A DNA stretch of 36,794 nucleotides, taken from positions 1 through 36,794 of the forward strand of contig JALXBF010000170.1 of the NCBI GenBank assembly GCA_026991575.1. The letters are read 5' to 3'. The position numbers were made by a program, and so were the translations under genes. How positions within the stretch are numbered: position 1 is the stretch's first letter; every line of letters begins with the position of its first letter. This stretch comes from Planctomycetota bacterium (GTDB lineage: Bacteria; Planctomycetota; Planctomycetia; JALXBF01). The notes below the pieces were generated by a model. That model did no database searches. It had not been told where the DNA came from and worked only from the letters and a program-made list of their open reading frames with translations. Below, one piece after another: positions 16,590 through 32,941 of this stretch.

Positions 16590-18056
16590 ATGCACGGCCC
16601 CGACATGACGCTGGCAGTAAAGATCGGCCTTTCCTGGTGCTTCGCCTTCCTTGCGGCCATGAACCTGACGGCCATCGTCTTCTGGGTGTTCCGCAAGGAA
16701 GACGGCAAGCTGGAACTGCCTGAGAACTTCGGCCTGGTTGCAACCCTGTGTGGCCTGGTCTTCGGCGTCGGTCTTGTTCTGGCCCACACCAGCGTGCCGG
16801 CCCCGGTGAGCTATTCCATCGGCCTGGTCGGGCTATTGGCTTTCGGGGCCTACCTGGTAGCAGTCGGTCTGCTGCGGGCCGGCTCCGCTGCCGCCTGGAC
16901 CTGGCTTGTTTTCGCACTCGTCTACCTAGGCCTTTCGGCTGCCTATGGCTACCTGCCAGTGTCGGCGGCTCCGGTGCTGCCGGAAGCGTTCCGCGACACG
17001 GTTGATGCTGTGTCCGGCCCGGTGAGTTTCTTCTTCGGGTCGGTCATCGGACTGGCGGTGATCATTTGGTTCCGGGAGTTCATCACTCGACCGGCGGTCG
17101 GCTGGATCGCCCTGAACATCTTCCTGGCGTTCTACGCGCTCAGCATGACGGACTGGGATTTCCGTCAGATCGTCGCCAAGCCGGACAACATCCCGATCAC
17201 GATGATGCTGCTGACGGTCGGCTTCTTCACGTGGCTGGCACTGCGTCGTGCCGTGGAGAACGACCGGAGGATTGCTGAAGGAAAGCCGGTGGTTGAGAAG
17301 GAGCGAGAGGAGAAGGTTCTGGTCTGGCCCGATCTCGTCTACGTCGAGCTGATCTGCATGATCATTTTCACCGTTGGGCTCGTGCTGTGGAGCATCTACC
17401 TGAAGGCCCCCATTGAGCAGCCTGCGAACCTGACCGAAACCCCAAACCCGTCCAAGGCTCCGTGGTACTTCCTCGGGCTCCAGGAGATGCTGGTCTACTA
17501 CGATCCCTGGCTGGCCGGTGTGGTGTTCCCGGGCCTGATTATCCTGGGCCTGATGGCCATGCCCTACATTGACGTCAACGTCAAGGGAGCTGGCTACTAC
17601 ACGTTCCGCGAGCGCAGCTTCGCAATCACCACGTTCCTGTTTGGCTTCATCGTGCTCTGGGTGCTGATGGTGACGTTGGGCACGTTCCTGCGCGGTCCCG
17701 GCTGGAACTTCTACGGGCCTTATCAGTACTGGGATCCGCACCTGGTGCTGCCTCTGGTGAACGTAGACTTCTCGGACTACTTCTGGCTGTACTGGCTGGG
17801 GGTCGCCAAACCGGAACATTGGGCTTTGCGTGAGCTGCCTGGTATCATCGCCGTGCTGCTGTACTTCCTGATCCTGCCACCACTGCTGGCACGTACGGTG
17901 TTCCGGCGGCTTTACCTGCAGATGGGCTTCGCACGCTATATGGTGTTCAGCTTTCTGTTCCTGATGATGGCCGCACTGCCGCTGAAGATGTTGCTTCGCT
18001 GGACGTTCAATCTGAAGTACATCGTGCACATAGGCGAGTACTTCTTCAACATCTAG
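16590..18056 (+). CDS. Cytochrome b subunit IV (PetD-like) with large N-terminal polytopic extension
   Basis: VWPDLV, PANLTETPNPSKAPWYFLGLQE (PEWY-equivalent), PYID; position after cyt b6. Confidence 0.85.
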   Translation: MHGPDMTLAVKIGLSWCFAFLAAMNLTAIVFWVFRKEDGKLELPENFGLVATLCGLVFGVGLVLAHTSVPAPVSYSIGLVGLLAFGAYLVAVGLLRAGSAAAWTWLVFALVYLGLSAAYGYLPVSAAPVLPEAFRDTVDAVSGPVSFFFGSVIGLAVIIWFREFITRPAVGWIALNIFLAFYALSMTDWDFRQIVAKPDNIPITMMLLTVGFFTWLALRRAVENDRRIAEGKPVVEKEREEKVLVWPDLVYVELICMIIFTVGLVLWSIYLKAPIEQPANLTETPNPSKAPWYFLGLQEMLVYYDPWLAGVVFPGLIILGLMAMPYIDVNVKGAGYYTFRERSFAITTFLFGFIVLWVLMVTLGTFLRGPGWNFYGPYQYWDPHLVLPLVNVDFSDYFWLYWLGVAKPEHWALRELPGIIAVLLYFLILPPLLARTVFRRLYLQMGFARYMVFSFLFLMMAALPLKMLLRWTFNLKYIVHIGEYFFNI

Positions 18057-18135
18057 CCGCGACCAAGACCGGAGGGCGGAAGGCTGCGCAGCTACGGTGC
18101 GGCTAGCAGCGAGGCCTGATGAGACGAGGAGATCG

Positions 18136-21100
18136 ATGCCAGCAACCGAGGCTACGTACCGGAACCTGAAGAAGCTGCACGTGGTGTTCGGCGTATCCAG
18201 CCTTGCCATGCTGCTGGCGATCCTGTGGATGATCGCCGCGGATCACATGCGCGAATGGAAGCGCGTCCAGCGGGACTTTCTTGTTGTTGATGCCCGCCGC
18301 CTCCAGTATGAACTCCAGCAGCGCGAGCAGGCGCTGGACCAGCAGAAGCTGGCTGAACTGGAACAGAAGCGGCAACAGGCCCTGCAGCGGGTGAATCAGC
18401 GGCGCGACGAGATCGCAGCGATCGAGCAAGAGCTAGAGCACCTGCGCGGACAGGCTCAGCTGGCCCGGCAGCGCCGGCTGATTGTCCAGGCCGAGCGCGA
18501 TTCGATCGCTAGCTTGATCGAGATTGCGAAAGAGGAGCGTGACGAAGAGAAACTCCAACAGCTGCGTGCCCAGTTGCAGCAGGTGCTGAAGCAGCTCGAG
18601 GAGCTCCGCCGTCAGGAGGAAGAAGCGCAGCAGGCGGTCGAAGCGAAGCAGAGGGAACTGGAGCAAAAGCAGAAAGAACTGCTCGAGGTGGAAAAGGAGC
18701 GCAAGCAGCTACTGCGTGATATCGAGCGGCTCCGCGAAGCGCTGGAAGCGAAGAAGTGGGAGTGGGACGAGACGGTCCGATCCTGGCCCATCCTGGATGC
18801 TTTCGCCTCACCAGTACGCATCGAACAGACCGTCCATGACGATCTGCAGATGGACTTCCACTTCACCGGGGTGCCACGCACTGACCGCTGCGTCACGTGT
18901 CACAAAGGAATCGACATGGTGCGAGCCGATGGTTCCCCAATCTACACGGAGCAGTTGCTCGAGCAGCTCAACGCTAAACAGAGCCCCTACTGGCGAGCAT
19001 TCCTGACGCATCCGAAACCGGAACTGTACGTCACTGCCAACAGCCCGCACCCGCGCGAAACATTCGGTTGCACCGTCTGCCACTCGGGGCAGGGGTCGGG
19101 GACCACGTTCACGTACGCCTCGCATTCGCCGAACACGCTTCGTGAGGAACATGAGTGGCAGGCGAAGTACGGCTGGCACGAGGTCCACTTCTGGGAAGAG
19201 CCGATGTTGCCGAGCCGGTTTTACGAGTCGTCTTGCCTGAAGTGCCACGTCCACGTGGTTGACCTGGAAAACCATCCAAAGTACGAGAATCCGGCTCCGA
19301 AGCTGCTGCGCGGCTATCACCTCGTTCGCCAATACGGCTGCTTCGGTTGCCACGAGATCAACGGCTACGTCGAAGGCAAACGGATCGGTCCGGACCTCAG
19401 GCTGGAGCCTCAGACGGAGCAGGAACGTAAACGGGCAGAAGCGGACCCAAGCCAGCCGCCTGGGACGATGCGGAAGGTTGGTCCGTCGCTACGGCATCTG
19501 GCGGAGAAGACGGTCGAGTCGTGGGTCCGCCGGTGGATCAAGCATCCGGCTGCGTTCCGTCCCACCACTCGGATGCCTCGGTTTTACGGCCTTTCCAACA
19601 ACGACGGGCAAACACCCGGGAGCGATCCGACCGATCTGCTTCGCAGCGACGTCGAGATCTATGCGATCACCTACTACCTGTTCCAGAAGAGTGAACCGTT
19701 GAACTTGCCGGATCCGCCGGTGAAGGTTGACCCGACGGACGCCGAACAGGTCGCTCGAGGCAAGACCAAGTTCATCGAACGCGGTTGCCTGGCCTGTCAT
19801 ACGCACGCCGGCGTGCAGGGGGAGCTGGAGCAGATTGAGGTTGAGGCGACAGCGGACTTCGGACCGGACCTCTCCGACTTGCGCCTGAAGCTGGTCGATG
19901 CAAACGGCCGGCCGAATACGAAATGGCTGTACCACTGGCTTAAGAACCCAAAGCGGATCAACCCACGCGGCTTTATGCCGGAACTGAAACTCAGTGACCA
20001 GGACGCTGCGGATATTGCTGCCTGGCTGCTAAGCCAGGATGCCCGGTGGCATGAGGAAGTGTCACTGAAGCCGCTGGAGTCGGCCGAGATCCAGCAGACT
20101 ATCGACGAGATGATCTACATGTACCTGGAGCGGAACTTCACGTTGGAGCAGTCGGAGCGGGCGGTGCGCGAGGGGCTGCGCGAGGATGAGCTGCCGCCGA
20201 GTGGCCCGGAGCGGCTGTTGGTCGCGCCGATCACGCCCGAAAAGAAGCTGCTGTACCTTGGGCAGAAAACCATTGGCCGCCTCGGCTGTTTTGGCTGCCA
20301 CGACATCCCCGGGTTCGAGACAGCTAAGCCGATCGGTACGCCGCTGAGTGATTGGGGCCGGAAGGCGTTCAAGGACCCGGAGAAACTGGAGTTCGTGCAC
20401 GTTGCGGAGTTCGCCGCCGAACGGGGGCCGGAGGGCTGGAGCGAAGAGGACTACGAGTACTTCCTGACAAAGCTGGAGCACCACACCGGTATCGGGTTTC
20501 TGTGGCAGAAGCTGCGCTACCCACGGAGCTTCGACTACAACCGCGATCGTCGCTGGGATGATAAGTTACGGATGCCGCGGTTCCCGTTCGCGAACAACCC
20601 TGAAGACGTCGAGGCTGTGATGACGTTTGTCCTCGGGCTGGTGCAGGACGCGATGATTGCACCGGCCAAGCGGGCGCTGCCCGGACCACGGGAGCTGGCC
20701 CGGATCGAGGGCTGGAAGGCGATCACGCGGTACAACTGCGCTGGCTGCCACGTGTTCCGGATGCCCGAGATCGCCTTCGACGCAACCAAGATGCTCATGG
20801 AGCAGCCCCTGACACGCCATGGCGAGGAGTTTCCCGAGGTGATCGAGGCTCAGAAGAAGATGGCGCGCGACGCTCGGGTGCCGCGGACCGAGCAGATCTA
20901 TCGGATTCAGGGGTTGTTGGTCGGTGAGGTGCCGCCGTTGAGCTTCCCGGATGAGGACGCGCTGGATGGGGTGGCGGCCATTGAGCTGTGGGAGCCGATG
21001 CGGTGGCAGGATACGGTCCTGCTGGTCGGGGACCGGATTCCGGTGGATGACCCGGAGGGGGTTCTGCTGGAGCGGTCCCGGCCGGCGGTGGGTGGGGAGT

Positions 21101-21816
21101 ATGCGGAGATTCTGGTTAAGTGGCTGGCCACGCAGCAGAACAAGCGTTACGAGGAGGTCTGGGGATTTGTGCCGCCGCCGCTGGTGCGTCAGGGGATGAA
21201 GACCCAGCCGGCCTGGACCCACCAGTTCTTGCTGGACCCGTTCCTAATCCGCCCAGCCGCGCGCCTCAGAATGCCCCGTTTCCACATGAGTGATGCTGAG
21301 GCGGCCGCGATCGCACGCTACTTTGCGCTGGTCGACGGTGTCGAGGAGCCTTACGACTACGTGCCGGAGCGTGAGGAGGAGTACCGCCGCCGGCGTGCTA
21401 GCGAACGACCTGACTACTGGCGCGCGGCATGGAATTTGCTCACCATGCGGCCCGAACCCCAGGCGGGCCAGGCCGGCCAGCAGGCCCGCCTGTGTGCGTC
21501 CTGCCACCGGATCGGCACTGTCTACCCGGCCGGCGGGCGCCCCGAGGACAGCGGGCCAGACCTGCACGTTGTGGCCCACCGGTTGCGTTCGGAATACCTG
21601 TGGCAATGGATTGCTTCGCCGAAACGGCTCCTGCCCTACACGGGCATGCCGGTGAACTTCGATCCCCAGAACCCACGGTATCAGGATGTCTTCCGGGGCA
21701 GGAGCATTGACCAGGTGATCGCCGTCAAGGACGTCCTGCTGAACTTTGACTACGTGGAGTATGACGTGGTGCGTCGCAGAGACGGTGAACAACCCGGTGC
21801 AACTGGAGGAGAGTGA
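18136..21816 (+). CDS. Membrane-anchored octaheme cytochrome c with long coiled coil (~1226 aa)
   Basis: N-terminal TM, Q/E/K-rich heptads, eight CxxCH (CVTCH, CTVCH, CLKCH, CFGCH, CLACH, CFGCH, CAGCH, CASCH), repeated GP.L...W...P...MP class-I cyt c folds; AGGAG RBS. Confidence 0.9.
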   Translation: MPATEATYRNLKKLHVVFGVSSLAMLLAILWMIAADHMREWKRVQRDFLVVDARRLQYELQQREQALDQQKLAELEQKRQQALQRVNQRRDEIAAIEQELEHLRGQAQLARQRRLIVQAERDSIASLIEIAKEERDEEKLQQLRAQLQQVLKQLEELRRQEEEAQQAVEAKQRELEQKQKELLEVEKERKQLLRDIERLREALEAKKWEWDETVRSWPILDAFASPVRIEQTVHDDLQMDFHFTGVPRTDRCVTCHKGIDMVRADGSPIYTEQLLEQLNAKQSPYWRAFLTHPKPELYVTANSPHPRETFGCTVCHSGQGSGTTFTYASHSPNTLREEHEWQAKYGWHEVHFWEEPMLPSRFYESSCLKCHVHVVDLENHPKYENPAPKLLRGYHLVRQYGCFGCHEINGYVEGKRIGPDLRLEPQTEQERKRAEADPSQPPGTMRKVGPSLRHLAEKTVESWVRRWIKHPAAFRPTTRMPRFYGLSNNDGQTPGSDPTDLLRSDVEIYAITYYLFQKSEPLNLPDPPVKVDPTDAEQVARGKTKFIERGCLACHTHAGVQGELEQIEVEATADFGPDLSDLRLKLVDANGRPNTKWLYHWLKNPKRINPRGFMPELKLSDQDAADIAAWLLSQDARWHEEVSLKPLESAEIQQTIDEMIYMYLERNFTLEQSERAVREGLREDELPPSGPERLLVAPITPEKKLLYLGQKTIGRLGCFGCHDIPGFETAKPIGTPLSDWGRKAFKDPEKLEFVHVAEFAAERGPEGWSEEDYEYFLTKLEHHTGIGFLWQKLRYPRSFDYNRDRRWDDKLRMPRFPFANNPEDVEAVMTFVLGLVQDAMIAPAKRALPGPRELARIEGWKAITRYNCAGCHVFRMPEIAFDATKMLMEQPLTRHGEEFPEVIEAQKKMARDARVPRTEQIYRIQGLLVGEVPPLSFPDEDALDGVAAIELWEPMRWQDTVLLVGDRIPVDDPEGVLLERSRPAVGGEYAEILVKWLATQQNKRYEEVWGFVPPPLVRQGMKTQPAWTHQFLLDPFLIRPAARLRMPRFHMSDAEAAAIARYFALVDGVEEPYDYVPEREEEYRRRRASERPDYWRAAWNLLTMRPEPQAGQAGQQARLCASCHRIGTVYPAGGRPEDSGPDLHVVAHRLRSEYLWQWIASPKRLLPYTGMPVNFDPQNPRYQDVFRGRSIDQVIAVKDVLLNFDYVEYDVVRRRDGEQPGATGGE

Positions 21817-29238: not shown

Positions 29239-29607
29239 ATGAGTAACGAGCACAGTGGCAACCACTTTAACGCATACCTGTACGTGGCCATTGCTCTGTT
29301 GATCCTGACCGTGGTCACATACTTCGTGGCCGAGAGTTTCGAGACGACGTTCCAACGGGCAGTCTCTGGCCTGTTGATCGCTGTGGCCAAGGCCATGTTG
29401 GTCGTCTCGATCTTCATGCACCTGAAGTGGGACTGGAAAAAGAAGACCTGGTTCATGATTGTCCCGGCATTGCTGCTCTCTGCGGTGCTGCTGGTGGGAC
29501 TGTTCCCGGACATTGCCAAGCGGGAGATTACGACCTCACCGTACAGCACCGCCGTTGCTGCCGAGGGCAGCACGGGCACAAGCCACGCCGGTGGCGCCAG
29601 CCATTGA
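29239..29607 (+). CDS. ctaF: Cytochrome c oxidase subunit IV
   Basis: 3 TM, IAVAKAMLVVSIFMHLKWD. Confidence 0.88.
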   Translation: MSNEHSGNHFNAYLYVAIALLILTVVTYFVAESFETTFQRAVSGLLIAVAKAMLVVSIFMHLKWDWKKKTWFMIVPALLLSAVLLVGLFPDIAKREITTSPYSTAVAAEGSTGTSHAGGASH

Positions 29608-30520
29608 ACTACACAATCTGGTGTGTCGGTATGGTGACCGGGTCGCGGTCGCAGGCATCAGCCTGGCCGTCGAGCCCGGTTCCATTTTCGGGGTACTCGG
29701 CCCCAACGGCGGCGGAAAGTCGACGACGTTTCGAGTGCTGGCGACTTTGAGGCCGCCGCAGGAGGGCAGCGCCCGAGTGGCGGGCTATGACGTGGTCCAA
29801 GACGCTGGGCAGGTGCGGCGGCGCATTGGGGTCGTTTTCCAGGAGGCCGCTTTGGATGATAAGCTCACCGTGCGTGAAAACCTTACCCATCACGGGCATC
29901 TCTACGGCCTCCGAGGTTCTGAGTTGCGGGCGCGCATCGAGCGGGTCCTGGAGAACGTCGCGCTCCTGGACCGAGCGGACGAGCTGGTCGAGAAACTTTC
30001 CGGAGGACTGAAACGACGCGCCGAGATTGCCAAGGTGTTGTTACACGAGCCTGAGGTCCTGCTGCTGGATGAGCCGACCACAGGGCTGGACCCGGGGGCT
30101 CGTGCCGCACTGTGGCAGCAACTTCGCCGACTCCGAGACGAACACGGCTGCACGGTGCTGATGGCCACCCACCTGTTCGAGGATGCCGAACAGTGCGACC
30201 AGATTGCCATTCTCGACCGAGGCAAGCTGGTCGGGCTTGGCACACCACAGCAATTGAAGCGACTCGTCGGGGGAGAGGTCCTGACCCTTGAGTGCGACGA
30301 TGCCGAGGGAGTGGTACGTGAGCTGCCCCGGATCGTGCCCGGAGCTGAACCGATGCGCGTGGGTGAGCAGATTCGGCTTGAGCATCCGGAAGCCCACCGG
30401 CTGGTGCCCCAGCTTGTCGAAGTTTTCGGCGAGCGGATCCGCGCGATCCGACTGGGGCAGCCAACGCTGGCCGATGTGTTCTTCAAGTTAGCGGGTCATG
30501 AGTTCGACGGTGTCGGTTGA
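29591..30520 (+). CDS. ABC transporter ATP-binding protein (DrrA-like)
   Basis: GPNGGGKST, LSGG, LLLDEPT, ATH; start estimated at GTG 29591. Confidence 0.93.
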   Translation: MAPAIELHNLVCRYGDRVAVAGISLAVEPGSIFGVLGPNGGGKSTTFRVLATLRPPQEGSARVAGYDVVQDAGQVRRRIGVVFQEAALDDKLTVRENLTHHGHLYGLRGSELRARIERVLENVALLDRADELVEKLSGGLKRRAEIAKVLLHEPEVLLLDEPTTGLDPGARAALWQQLRRLRDEHGCTVLMATHLFEDAEQCDQIAILDRGKLVGLGTPQQLKRLVGGEVLTLECDDAEGVVRELPRIVPGAEPMRVGEQIRLEHPEAHRLVPQLVEVFGERIRAIRLGQPTLADVFFKLAGHEFDGVG

Positions 30521-31308
30521 GCCGAGCGGAGCGATCGAGCGTGCAGGACGTACTGGTGGTCACAATCAGCCTGGCACGCCGCGAAGTGGTCCGCTTTTTG
30601 CGACAACGATCGCGGGTGATTGGCGGACTGCTGACGCCAGTCGTTTTCTGGTTGCTGCTCGGCTTCGGTATCGGCCGTTCGTTCCGGCCGCCGGGATGGG
30701 GTAACGACGTGGACTTTGCGGAATACTTCTTCCCGGGCACGCTCCTGCTGATCCTGCTGTTCACGGCGATTTTCTCGACGGTCTCCGTGATCGAAGATCG
30801 CCGGGCGGGCTTCCTGCAGGGCGTTCTGGTGTCACCTGCACCATTGCTAGCAGTGGTGCTTAGCAAAGTGCTGGGCGGGGCAGTGCTTGCACTGCTTCAC
30901 GGCGCGCTGTTCCTTTTGCTTGCCCCTGTGGCCGGCCTGGCAATTCCGGCGCAGGCGTTCGGCGCACTGGTCGCGTTCATGGTGCTGGACAGCCTGACGC
31001 TGACGGCCCTTGGGCTCGCGGTCGCCTGGCCCATGGAGTCAACGCAAGGGTTTCACGCCGTCATGAACCTCGTGCTTATCCCGCTATGGCTTTTGTCCGG
31101 AGCGCTGTTTCCGATGGAGGGGGCAGCCGCTTGGGTCCGCGTGCTCATGCGGCTTAATCCCGTGCACTATGCGTACGCAGGCTTACAGGCGGCGCTGTTA
31201 CCGGCAGCTCCTAGAATTCCAGTGAGCATTGCGGCCGGCGTGAACCTCGCCTTCCTGCTCCTGTTGATCGGGTGGGTGGTTCTGGTTGCTGGCCGAGCGA
31301 GGAATTGA
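30517..31308 (+). CDS. ABC-2 transporter permease
   Basis: 6 TM, YFFPG, IEDRRAGFLQGVLVSP, LSGALFP, NPVHY. Confidence 0.9.
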   Translation: MSRAERSSVQDVLVVTISLARREVVRFLRQRSRVIGGLLTPVVFWLLLGFGIGRSFRPPGWGNDVDFAEYFFPGTLLLILLFTAIFSTVSVIEDRRAGFLQGVLVSPAPLLAVVLSKVLGGAVLALLHGALFLLLAPVAGLAIPAQAFGALVAFMVLDSLTLTALGLAVAWPMESTQGFHAVMNLVLIPLWLLSGALFPMEGAAAWVRVLMRLNPVHYAYAGLQAALLPAAPRIPVSIAAGVNLAFLLLLIGWVVLVAGRARN

Positions 31309-31311
31309 GCG

Positions 31312-32004
31312 ATGTCGCAGTCGGTTGATGCGTCCCGTGCGAGCATGATGCGCTCGCTGGGCACGTACCTGGTGGTGCTGATGTTAGCCGGGGGTGGCTT
31401 GATCGCCGGCGGGGCGTTCCTTGGTCGCTTGCATGCATCGAACACGGCTTATCGGGAGGCGGTCCAGATGGTGCGGCAGCTGGCGCTGCCGCTGCCCTCG
31501 GTTGAGCTGGTGGATCACCACGGCAGGCCCTGGCGGCCGGAGATGCTCCGCGGGCAGGTCTGGGTGGCTGCCTGCTTCTTCACACGCTGCTCGACAGTCT
31601 GCCCCGCGCTGATGCACTCGCTGCAGAGTTTGGCCGAGGAGCTGAAAGGCCTGCAAGGGGTGCGCTTCCTGATCGTGACCGTTGATCCGACCCATGATCG
31701 ACCGGCGGTGCTGCGTGACTACGCCCGAGCGATCAAGGCGGATCAGCGGTGGCTGTTCGTCACAGGCGAAAAGGAGGCCGTGTATCGGTTGGTACGTGAG
31801 GGCTTTCGGCTGTCGGCTGCGGAAACTCCCCCCGAGGCACGCCGCCAGGGGGCTGATCCCGTGACACACAGCACCAGACTGGTACTCATTGGCAAACAGG
31901 CCCGCGTACGTGGCTACGCGGAGACGCGCGATCCGTGGCAGCTGACCAAGCTCCAACACGCGATCGACCTGTTACTGGCCGAACCCGAAGACGATGTCCG
32001 CTGA
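31312..32004 (+). CDS. sco: SCO1/SenC copper chaperone
   Basis: FFTRCSTVCP (CxxxC), VDPTHD, WLFVTG, THS. Confidence 0.92.
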   Translation: MSQSVDASRASMMRSLGTYLVVLMLAGGGLIAGGAFLGRLHASNTAYREAVQMVRQLALPLPSVELVDHHGRPWRPEMLRGQVWVAACFFTRCSTVCPALMHSLQSLAEELKGLQGVRFLIVTVDPTHDRPAVLRDYARAIKADQRWLFVTGEKEAVYRLVREGFRLSAAETPPEARRQGADPVTHSTRLVLIGKQARVRGYAETRDPWQLTKLQHAIDLLLAEPEDDVR

Positions 32005-32419
32005 AGGTCCGCCACTGCTTGCAACCATAGACGCGGCGCTCAACCTGACAGCCGCGGTGCTGATGACGGCCGGATATGCGGCCGTGCGCGCCGGTCGGAT
32101 CCTTCTGCATCGGCGGCTGATGCTCGCCGCAGTGGCGGTTTCGGCCTTGTTCCTGGTCTGTTACCTCTATTACCACGCCACCCACGAGCCAGTGCGGTAT
32201 CAGGGCAGCGGCTGGGCCCGTCTGCTCTATCTGCTGCTGCTCGGCAGCCACACGGTCCTCGCAGCAGCGACCGTACCGCTGGTGTTGACCAGCGTCTGGT
32301 TAGGGTTGCGTGACCGGATCGACCGACACCGGCAGCTTGTTCGCTATGCGCTGCCAATCTGGTGGTACGTCTCCGTTAGCGGAGTGGTTGTCTACATCGT
32401 GCTGTACCATCTGGGCTAG
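31994..32419 (+). CDS. DUF420 (CtaM/YozB-like) membrane protein
   Basis: 4 TM, HRRLM, FLVCYLYYH, SHTVLA, HRQ, WWYVSVSGVVVY. Confidence 0.88.
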   Translation: MSAEGPPLLATIDAALNLTAAVLMTAGYAAVRAGRILLHRRLMLAAVAVSALFLVCYLYYHATHEPVRYQGSGWARLLYLLLLGSHTVLAAATVPLVLTSVWLGLRDRIDRHRQLVRYALPIWWYVSVSGVVVYIVLYHLG

Positions 32420-32453
32420 TCCAGCGGTGGTGACCGGCAGAGGAGTCCTGGGC

Positions 32454-32759
32454 ATGAAGTGGTCAAACTGGCTTGCACGAACGGCTCTGGTGACGATGGG
32501 GCTGCTGTTGCTCCATGCGTCGTTGGTCTATGGCCAATGCGCGATGTGAAAGCAGACAGTGTCGGCCTCCGGTTCGGAGGACGCCGTCCGCTTTGCCAGC
32601 GCTCTGAACGCCGGTATCCTGCTTCTTCTCGGAGCCCCCTACCTGGTGCTTGGCGGCCTGGGCCTGATCTTCTACCGCGCCGTGCGCAAGGCACGCCGCC
32701 AGCAGCAAGAGGCCGCACTGAGCGAATCGAATGACACCGACCCGGTCGCGAATCGGTGA
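32454..32759 (+). CDS. Small exported membrane protein with in-frame UGA at codon 32; candidate CxxU selenoprotein (101 aa)
   Basis: AGGAG RBS and ATG 32454; signal peptide then QCAM-TGA(32547-32549)-KQTV..., frame continues through NAGILLLLGAPYLVLGGLGLIFY (TM) to TGA 32759; hairpin just after the UGA. Confidence 0.72.
32563..32586 (+). promoter_or_regulatory. Candidate bacterial SECIS element
   Basis: CCUCC-GGUUC-GGAGG apical stem-loop (32566-32580), G-first loop 21 nt after UGA, extendable by CGG/CCG pairing below a bulge. Confidence 0.6.
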
Positions 32760-32941
32760 GCGCGATGCGGTATCGGATCGGGCGTATGCTGCAGTTGGCG
32801 GGGCTGATCATTGTGCCGCAGGGGATCGTTGCCAACCTGGCGGCCGGAGCATCTCTCTGGACGACCTTTGCGATTGCAGGCGCTGGCTGCGCCGTCTTCT
32901 ACCTGGGCCGGGCCATTCAGGGCGATGCTGGCGGGCCCTAG
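32756..32941 (+). CDS. Small two-TM membrane protein
   Basis: GRMLQLAGLIIVP...VFYLGRAIQ; GTGA overlap with preceding stop (alternative ATG 32765). Confidence 0.7.
   Translation: MSAMRYRIGRMLQLAGLIIVPQGIVANLAAGASLWTTFAIAGAGCAVFYLGRAIQGDAGGP

Follow-up and report, generated by a model that had tools for sequence, protein, structure and literature searches.

The subject of this study is a small gene on contig JALXBF010000170.1 of a Planctomycetota bacterium (assembly GCA_026991575.1). It lies in a stretch of 36,794 nucleotides (nt; positions 1 to 36,794 of the contig) that is called the window hereafter. The gene follows SCO and DUF420 genes at the end of an aa3-type cytochrome c oxidase gene set, and its reading frame is crossed by a TGA codon predicted to be read as selenocysteine (Sec, U in motifs). 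Sequence comparison indicates that the protein very probably represents a real, previously undescribed selenoprotein family. A tie of this protein to oxidase biogenesis is likely. The explanation that best accounts for the data as a whole, in which we have moderate confidence, is a selenoprotein that would act as an oxidase-linked, membrane-tethered relay for Cu(I).

Reading frame and predicted protein

Two open reading frames (ORFs) of the + strand, 32310–32549 and 32559–32759, are in the same frame; their starts are 249 nt apart and their sole separator is the TGA at 32547–32549. The first-pass annotation of the window had joined them in one gene starting at ATG 32454, preceded by a ribosome-binding site, overlapping by its final stop the start of the next gene, and carrying the UGA in place of the second Cys of a CxxC motif just after a predicted signal peptide. 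The coordinates agree with the single frame 32454–32759; GAGGAG is found 8 nt before the start, the terminal TGA (32757–32759) overlaps a GTG start at 32756, and the UGA column is occupied by Cys in all Cys-form homologues examined. The positions of these features are given in Table 1.

The codons CAA TGC GCG ATG TGA AAG surround the Sec site and correspond to Q28-C29-A30-M31-TGA32-K33. The read-through product of 101 residues begins with MKWSNW and continues through LVYG into QCAMUK, so that the predicted Sec-containing amino terminal peptide of the mature protein is QCAMUK(QTVSASGSEDAVR). Hydropathy delimits two hydrophobic segments, one at about residues 6–27, which ends with VYG, and one at about residues 50–74. 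Five basic residues (R75, R78, K79, R81, R82) are clustered in the eight positions just past the second. The predicted topology is a cleaved signal peptide, a periplasmic stretch of ~22 residues opening with CxxU, one membrane helix and a cytoplasmic tail. The AlphaFold2 model (19-row alignment; mean predicted local distance difference test score, pLDDT, 87) has helices at residues 2–26, 30–39 and 42–92, and places the CxxU motif at the start of the short helix 30–39. A thioredoxin fold around the motif was not found: the model consists of three helices and a short linker, and no Pfam or NCBIfam model matches.

TGA and Cys codons among relatives

In the following, G000 designates the genome of the window, G001–G003 the other three species genomes of its order, and G004 a genome of another order. 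A six-frame search of 41 related genomes identified the gene in 19, with an in-frame TGA in G000, G001, G002 and G003 alone. The order is made of these four species genomes, all of which have the TGA (4/4), at 41–62% protein identity to the window protein. The four Sec-form proteins share 23 invariant residues that are spread on both sides of the TGA. The recurrence of both the TGA and the downstream hairpin (see below) in G001, G002 and G003 is the outcome that the first-pass annotation had proposed to look for in related genomes, and homologues do show either Cys or TGA at the Sec column, as it had anticipated.

The family is found in 289 of 401 genomes of the class, which is taken as Planctomycetia on the basis of its named homologues. 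Stop codons were surveyed in the 150 class matches listed, every stop-bearing row being inspected: five have TGA at a Cys column and the other stops are elsewhere. The stops away from the Cys columns among these matches are the natural gene end, except for one internal TAG in G219. This TAG (...GADGAV-stop-ASS...) interrupts the Cys-form gene L102 (G219:C637:1070-1490), which is probably a pseudogene or affected by a sequencing error. When the stop-bearing rows among the 150 matches listed and other loci, 67 genomes altogether, were read residue by residue, four had TGA at the second Cys, one (G004) at the first, and 62 had both Cys.

A scan of named species extended the comparison to other phyla, with Cys at the Sec column in 10/10 loci. 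These ten loci, from Bacteroidota (Aureivirga, Wenyingzhuangia, Polaribacter, Vicingaceae, Crocinitomicaceae and Flavobacteriaceae), Candidatus (Ca.) Chrysopegis kryptomonas and a metagenome-assembled genome (MAG) of Planctomycetaceae, carry YGQCAMCK; they bear out the statement of the first-pass annotation that proteins of a QCAMCK type occur beside SCO and DUF420 in Bacteroidota and Planctomycetota. A Gemmatimonadaceae MAG gave a weak match alone, unconfirmed by the family profile. The pattern TGYSCNATGTGAAAR, searched in 401 Bacteroidota genomes, matched in 89 of them (~100 sites); its reversed-pattern control gave a similar result and none of the 20 loci fetched had a family member. Among 80 loci of a metagenome scan, biased to Cys by the fact that one of its two patterns demanded Cys at the Sec column, 78 are Cys forms; the remaining two are Sec forms whose proteins are identical in sequence to those of G001 and G002.

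The invariant columns in alignments of 14 and of 19 members are C29, C32 (the Sec position) and P62 only. The residue aligned with the TGA is Cys and never Trp. The window protein, of the type QCAMUK ... ALNAGILLLL ... PY, has up to 43–46% identity (best segment) to the Bacteroidota/Chrysopegis type, and less, 21–29%, to most Planctomycetia forms. This closer likeness hints at an old subfamily split or at gene transfer.

The TGA was also followed in sequencing runs that contain the window DNA, all hydrothermal-vent metagenomes, by comparison of assembled Logan contigs with the window. The contig from the probable source sample has this stretch at depth 36 and shows no difference. From another sample of the same study (run X2), a contig spanning 32541–32691 is likewise without difference. 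Run X3, from a different study, provides a contig spanning 32459–32609 that differs at 32511, 32513, 32582 and 32585; these differences spare the TGA and the stem-loop at 32566–32580, the last two being at third-codon positions just past the stem. The contig from run X4 reaches the Sec codon at its very end only, and the strain in X3/X4 differs nearby. The TGA is thus kept in contigs assembled from other samples, a check that had been proposed on raw reads and was carried out here on assembled contigs.

A second Sec form in another order

In G004, the sole genome of its order, the family gene reads ...VSGFA-TGA-PGCKEAVASQ..., with the TGA in place of the first Cys. The G004 protein is of the Planctomycetia type "CPxCK ... 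GYFWS", unlike the window type "QCAMUK ... ALNAGI". A hairpin, AGAGGC-AGUU-GCCUCU, is positioned 11 nt past its UGA and differs from the hairpin of the window's order. The gene is found in the context CoxIII, CoxIV, gene, cytochrome c. By these comparisons the Cys-to-Sec swap of G004 appears to have arisen independently of that in the window's order.

Candidate SECIS hairpin

A hairpin with a 6-bp stem, CCUCCG-GUU-CGG(A/G)GG, occupies the same 15 nt in the four Sec forms, with one difference (U-A to U-G), and is a candidate Sec insertion sequence (SECIS). It starts 16 nt past the UGA in two genomes (G000, G001) and 13 nt past it in the other two (G002, G003). Twenty residues that are invariant in the four Sec proteins have degenerate codons. 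Their codons are identical at 3/3 positions inside the hairpin (Ser TCC, Gly GGT, Ser TCG) and at 1/17 outside. The hairpin would also be the reason why the SGSE segment that it encodes is kept in the Sec forms and absent in the Cys forms; at the matching place in ten Cys forms a hairpin of this kind was not seen. In the same genome, selD has a GGU-loop hairpin ~25 nt past its own UGA.

Sec decoding machinery

The G000 assembly (191 contigs, 97.8% complete) codes for selD, selB, selA and tRNA-Sec in a single cluster (Table 1), which settles favourably the question, raised with the first description of the gene, of whether its genome has the Sec machinery. All four exceed the cut-off, at 358, 383, 559 and 73 bits, respectively. 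The tRNA-Sec was confirmed by ARAGORN, with anticodon TCA, and selD is itself a selenoprotein gene with one in-frame TGA (SCAG-U-AGK). G001–G004 have selA (550–569 bits) and tRNA-Sec (70–76 bits) above cut-off. Among six Cys-form genomes tested for selA, three have none, G020 has a sub-threshold relative and no tRNA-Sec above cut-off, G006 has fragments at contig ends, and G026 has a full selA. The Sec machinery goes with every TGA form, and its presence does not force Sec into the family protein.

The protein family and its novelty

A profile search of 1.84 billion representative proteins (50% identity clusters) retrieved 4,619 at expectation value (E) ≤ 0.001 and 1,720 at E ≤ 1e-10. The 150 best family representatives all have CxxC, most commonly as CPTC, CPNC, CPGC, CAMC, CPMC or CPSC, and the next residue is Lys in 131 of them. 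Immediately before their first Cys stands AxA or xAQ/xSQ, sequences of the type recognized by signal peptidase. A lipoprotein signal was considered and rejected, the residues before the first Cys being mostly AxA with no lipobox.

No Pfam or NCBIfam model matched the family members examined, and weak Pfam matches below cut-off (DUF5472, Saf_2TM, CcmH, DUF898) were taken as noise from hydrophobic segments. Public records name the proteins "hypothetical protein" in Pirellula staleyi (Psta_2920), Gimesia aquarii, Paludisphaera borealis, Aureivirga, Wenyingzhuangia and Ca. Chrysopegis. The ESM Atlas, queried with a natural Cys homologue, returned "hypothetical protein" clusters alone, without Pfam assignment. 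A word-indexed search with the read-through protein, of a kind insensitive for small proteins, found P0002, the 66-residue C-terminal piece of the window protein, and one hypothetical protein of 92 residues.

According to the first-pass annotation, no selenoprotein family of haem-copper oxidase assembly is known to have been described, and the literature compared is in keeping with this. The 87 prokaryotic selenoprotein families listed in 2022 (PMC9312934, Table 1) include no such family. The same holds for the available portion of the 2026 update (PMC13188914), in whose text cytochrome c oxidase, Planctomycet and transmembrane are absent. The accessible parts of the deep-Sep and BSepDB papers do not mention the family. 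"Hypothetical protein 1" (CxxU, Sargasso Sea) was examined as a possible earlier report and rejected: the available portion of PMC13188914 places this protein with an NCBIfam model related to AhpD, and no NCBIfam model matches the window protein. Cys/Sec recoding itself is known; what is novel here, as far as could be established, is its occurrence in an unstudied, putative oxidase-assembly factor.

Genomic context

The order of genes on the + strand of the window is multihaem cytochrome c, dihaem cytochrome c, CoxII, CoxI, CtaA, CtaB, CoxIII and CoxIV, followed by an ABC-2 transporter pair, SCO, DUF420, the selenoprotein gene and a 61-residue ORF. The order SCO, DUF420, gene is found in 14 of the 35 Planctomycetia genomes examined, and DUF420 adjoins the gene in 9/10 loci from Bacteroidota, Ca. 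Chrysopegis and the Planctomycetaceae MAG. DUF420 is present in 371 of the 401 genomes of the class, and the protein family in none of the 20 listed genomes that are devoid of DUF420. In the taxon f9 neither DUF420 nor the gene was found (0/8 each), and in the taxon f7 a strong DUF420 match is present in 31 of the 32 genomes with the gene. Both the neighbourhood and the co-occurrence with oxidase assembly genes are conserved; the co-occurrence is taken as qualitative support, related genomes not being independent. The predicted complex of DUF420 with the mature family protein (Cys-form pair of Pirellula staleyi, with alignments) had a score of 0.00, which speaks neither for nor against binding. 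The DUF420/CtaM proteins of 10 Planctomycetia and Bacteroidota loci have four invariant His (H40, H62, H91 and H117 in the Pirellula staleyi numbering) that could be metal or haem ligands.

Table 1. Coordinates of the features discussed; positions refer to the window unless a genome is named
Feature	Position	Strand	Basis and remarks
SCO1/SenC copper chaperone	31312..32004	+	Pfam PF02630, E 5.5e-24
DUF420 (CtaM-type) membrane protein	31994..32419	+	Pfam PF04238, E 7e-38
GAGGAG ribosome-binding site	32440..32445	+	8 nt 5' of ATG 32454; sequence read directly
Predicted selenoprotein coding sequence, 101 residues	32454..32759	+	ATG 32454, Sec codon 32547-32549, stop TGA 32757-32759; same-TGA orthologues in G001/G002/G003
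Predicted signal peptide, residues 1-27, ends VYG	32454..32534	+	hydropathy; family AxA or xAQ/xSQ before first Cys; putative cleavage
Cys29 codon TGC, first CxxU position	32538..32540	+	invariant alignment column; position is TGA in G004
In-frame TGA, residue 32, second motif position, putative Sec	32547..32549	+	TGA in 4/4 order genomes; Cys elsewhere among homologues examined
SECIS-like hairpin CCUCCG-GUU-CGGAGG, encodes (A)SGSE	32566..32580	+	begins 16 nt past UGA; fold, conservation
Predicted transmembrane helix, ~residues 50-74, conserved N52, invariant P62, then basic cytoplasmic tail	32601..32675	+	hydropathy, charge count, AlphaFold2
61-residue ORF, two hydrophobic segments	32756..32941	+	GTG start overlaps selenoprotein stop (GTGA); no Pfam/NCBIfam match
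G004 family gene, locus L027	G004:C165:1072-1326	-	TGA at first Cys (FA-U-PGCK)
selD-selB-selA-tRNA-Sec cluster (L001, L009, L010, L017)	G000 C184:25019-29790		four genes within ~5 kb

In each of the four Sec-form genomes the 61-residue ORF lies directly 3' of the gene, including those in which SCO and DUF420 map to other places. Its phmmer matches directly downstream of the gene in G001, G002 and G003 have E 2e-19 to 4e-13, and it was not detected beside the Cys forms.

The ABC ATPase and ABC-2 permease found between CoxIV and SCO (window 29600–31308) resemble DrrA/DrrB in NCBIfam, below cut-off. A related permease is also located 5' of SCO in G001 and G198. The longest ORF of the ATPase (29459–30520) runs in a frame other than that of CoxIV (29239–29607), which it overlaps by ~150 nt; the ATPase gene probably begins in fact at ~29600. 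Within window positions 16590–21816, upstream of the oxidase genes, a 488-residue ORF with a sub-threshold match to ExtQ (E 1.6e-13, 51 bits vs a cut-off of 150) precedes a multihaem cytochrome c of 1,239 residues. ExtQ is a membrane-bound b-type cytochrome encoded in an operon for selenite/tellurite reduction.

Proposed function and alternatives

In the proposed mechanism, the UGA would be decoded as Sec by the bacterium's own SelA, SelB, SelD and tRNA-Sec, the hairpin 16 nt downstream directing the decoding. The mature amino terminus, Q-C-A-M-U-K, would be exposed on the periplasmic face, on which the SCO and CuA sites also lie, and a linker of ~20 residues would tether the Cys/Sec pair to one transmembrane helix. 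The C-x-x-U pair would bind Cu(I) that CtaM may carry across the membrane, and the protein would hand it to SCO and to the oxidase copper centres, selenolate being expected to be a softer and faster-exchanging ligand than thiolate. The finding of Sec at either Cys in different lineages suggests two roughly equivalent ligands. The protein does not match PCuAC (PF04314) or Cox11 (PF04442) and neither of them was found in the 97.8%-complete G000 genome, which leaves the role of a copper carrier vacant.

This proposed function fits the topology, the gene order and the co-occurrence with DUF420/CtaM. One study reports that CtaM (DUF420) is needed late in the assembly of aa3 and caa3 oxidases, possibly at CuB (PMC9145763). 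The Bacillus subtilis CtaM was proposed in 2026 to take part in copper export or trafficking for haem-copper oxidases (PMC13344008). Preference for a Cu(I) relay instead of a thiol-disulfide reductant is nevertheless held at slightly less than even confidence.

A number of observations weigh against the proposed explanation, either in its decoding or in its functional part. The Sec forms are all from draft assemblies of two small orders, G003 being ~80% complete, and 143 further class matches are outside the stop survey. The hairpin has no compensatory change, its one difference being a wobble pair, and covariation gives no proof of it. The 86-nt region past the TGA folds no better than shuffled sequences (z = -0.84), and Sec and Cys forms have overlapping folding energies in the downstream region. 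A scan of positions 32400–32800 against Rfam (E up to 10) returned no SECIS family and only three matches, all at chance level. G026 has selA yet keeps Cys in the family protein, so that Sec is optional for the family. The gene is apart from SCO and DUF420 in G002 and G003, and stands alone in about half of the Planctomycetia loci. Finally, the data fit copper binding and thiol-disulfide chemistry alike.

This last point leads to the alternative that survives best. TlpA acts on ScoI/CoxB and CcmH on apocytochrome c; by analogy, the same selenoprotein could be a thiol-disulfide (selenylsulfide) oxidoreductase that maintains in the reduced state, in the periplasm, either the CxxxC cysteines of SCO or those of the CuA site in CoxII. 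We regard this as rather unlikely, although no motifs are commoner among redox selenoproteins than CxxU and UxxC (PMC9312934, Table 1). The protein also resembles CcmH in layout, a signal peptide being followed by a periplasmic CxxC and a single transmembrane helix, and has a weak match to PF03918 (E 0.011, below cut-off) confined to its transmembrane part. In addition, the CP[NTSGM]C motif of the family resembles the CPHC/CPYC of thiol oxidoreductases. The motif is, however, devoid of a thioredoxin or CcmH fold, the ectodomain having ~22 residues with one short helix, and a source of reducing power is not evident. The occurrence of Sec at either Cys would suit equivalent ligands more than an attacking and a resolving Cys.

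Less probable still, and indeed improbable, is a structural role as a small subunit of the oxidase or of a CtaM complex, in which the Cys pair of the protein would form a fixed metal site or a disulfide and transfer nothing. The conserved helix residues N52, P62 and [FY]63 do suggest a specific packing, and in G004 the gene comes directly after CoxIV, but Sec is typical of reactive and not of structural sites, and the gene is often unlinked from oxidase genes.

That the TGA is a real stop, the locus being a TGC-to-TGA pseudogene or coding for a 31-residue peptide and a 66-residue protein initiated at GTG 32559, has very little probability. It corresponds to how gene callers split the locus and to the 66-residue C-terminal piece, P0002, held in the database. 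That piece would miss the signal peptide and the only invariant motif of the family. Moreover, four species retain this TGA at the identity given above, with both halves conserved in frame, and a second lineage (G004) has it at the other Cys. The hairpins at SECIS distance, the frozen synonymous sites and the Sec machinery of all five genomes (selA and tRNA-Sec tested in G001–G004) likewise argue against a stop. An assembly or sequencing error, for which the draft state of the genome (191 contigs) could be invoked, or a changed genetic code with TGA read as Trp, is close to negligible in view of the depth of 36 in the source contig, the TGA kept in contigs of X2 and X3 (and, at the contig end, X4) and in three other species, the use of TGA to terminate this gene and many homologues, and the alignment of the codon with Cys and never with Trp.

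Relation to known systems

The putative selenoprotein shares with CxxU/UxxC selenoproteins (SelW-like, AhpD-like, DsbA-like, thioredoxin-like) the replacement of one Cys of CxxC by Sec, Cys forms being far commoner. It also resembles them in the candidate hairpin ~11–16 nt past the UGA and in its predicted dependence on selA, selB, selD and tRNA-Sec. It differs in that a folded domain is lacking, the motif being at mature residues 2–5 on a tether of ~22 residues, and in its oxidase-assembly context.

The signal peptide, periplasmic CxxC, single transmembrane helix and cytoplasmic tail are features in common with CcmH (PF03918). CcmH acts on periplasmic cysteines of a respiratory protein, as the window protein would if it were a reductant. 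CcmH has a helical periplasmic domain of ~90 residues with LRCxxC, unlike the window protein. The latter does not group with PF03918: it scores 15.4 bits vs a cut-off of 25 and aligns by residues 46–93 (helix and tail) alone.

In its proposed role, that of a Cu(I) carrier acting together with SCO in the periplasm (or the intermembrane space), the protein would parallel PCuAC, Cox17 and CtaK, copper chaperones that supply SCO and CuA. It has no homology to them and differs by its membrane anchor and by the CxxC/CxxU-K at its amino terminus. In PCuAC the metal is bound by a His/Met site, and in Cox17 by a CCxC motif within a helical hairpin.

Sec was proposed as a soft-metal ligand also in MerT-like proteins, P-type ATPases with UxxC, the CopZ family and SaoB/SaoC (PMC9312934; available portion of PMC13188914). 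Those systems deal with mercury, arsenic and metal resistance and, unlike the protein proposed here, none is tied to respiratory oxidase assembly.

Significance

Gene callers split genes at TGA, and as a result the Sec forms of this family are missing from protein databases. If the two independent Cys-to-Sec swaps hold, they mark the amino terminal CxxC as the reactive site of an unstudied protein family. The finding would, if true, add to the known selenoproteins a family that works in a process new to them. The protein is a candidate for the copper route to CuA/CuB in bacteria without PCuAC or Cox11, and for the copper recipient of CtaM. In its furthest extension, which we put forward tentatively as possible rather than probable, it would be the first selenoprotein to act in the biogenesis of haem-copper oxidases and the periplasmic Cu(I) acceptor of the CtaM pathway, replacing PCuAC/Cox11 in Planctomycetota, Bacteroidota and other phyla, with Sec recruited twice independently, at one ligand position each time, to tune copper exchange.

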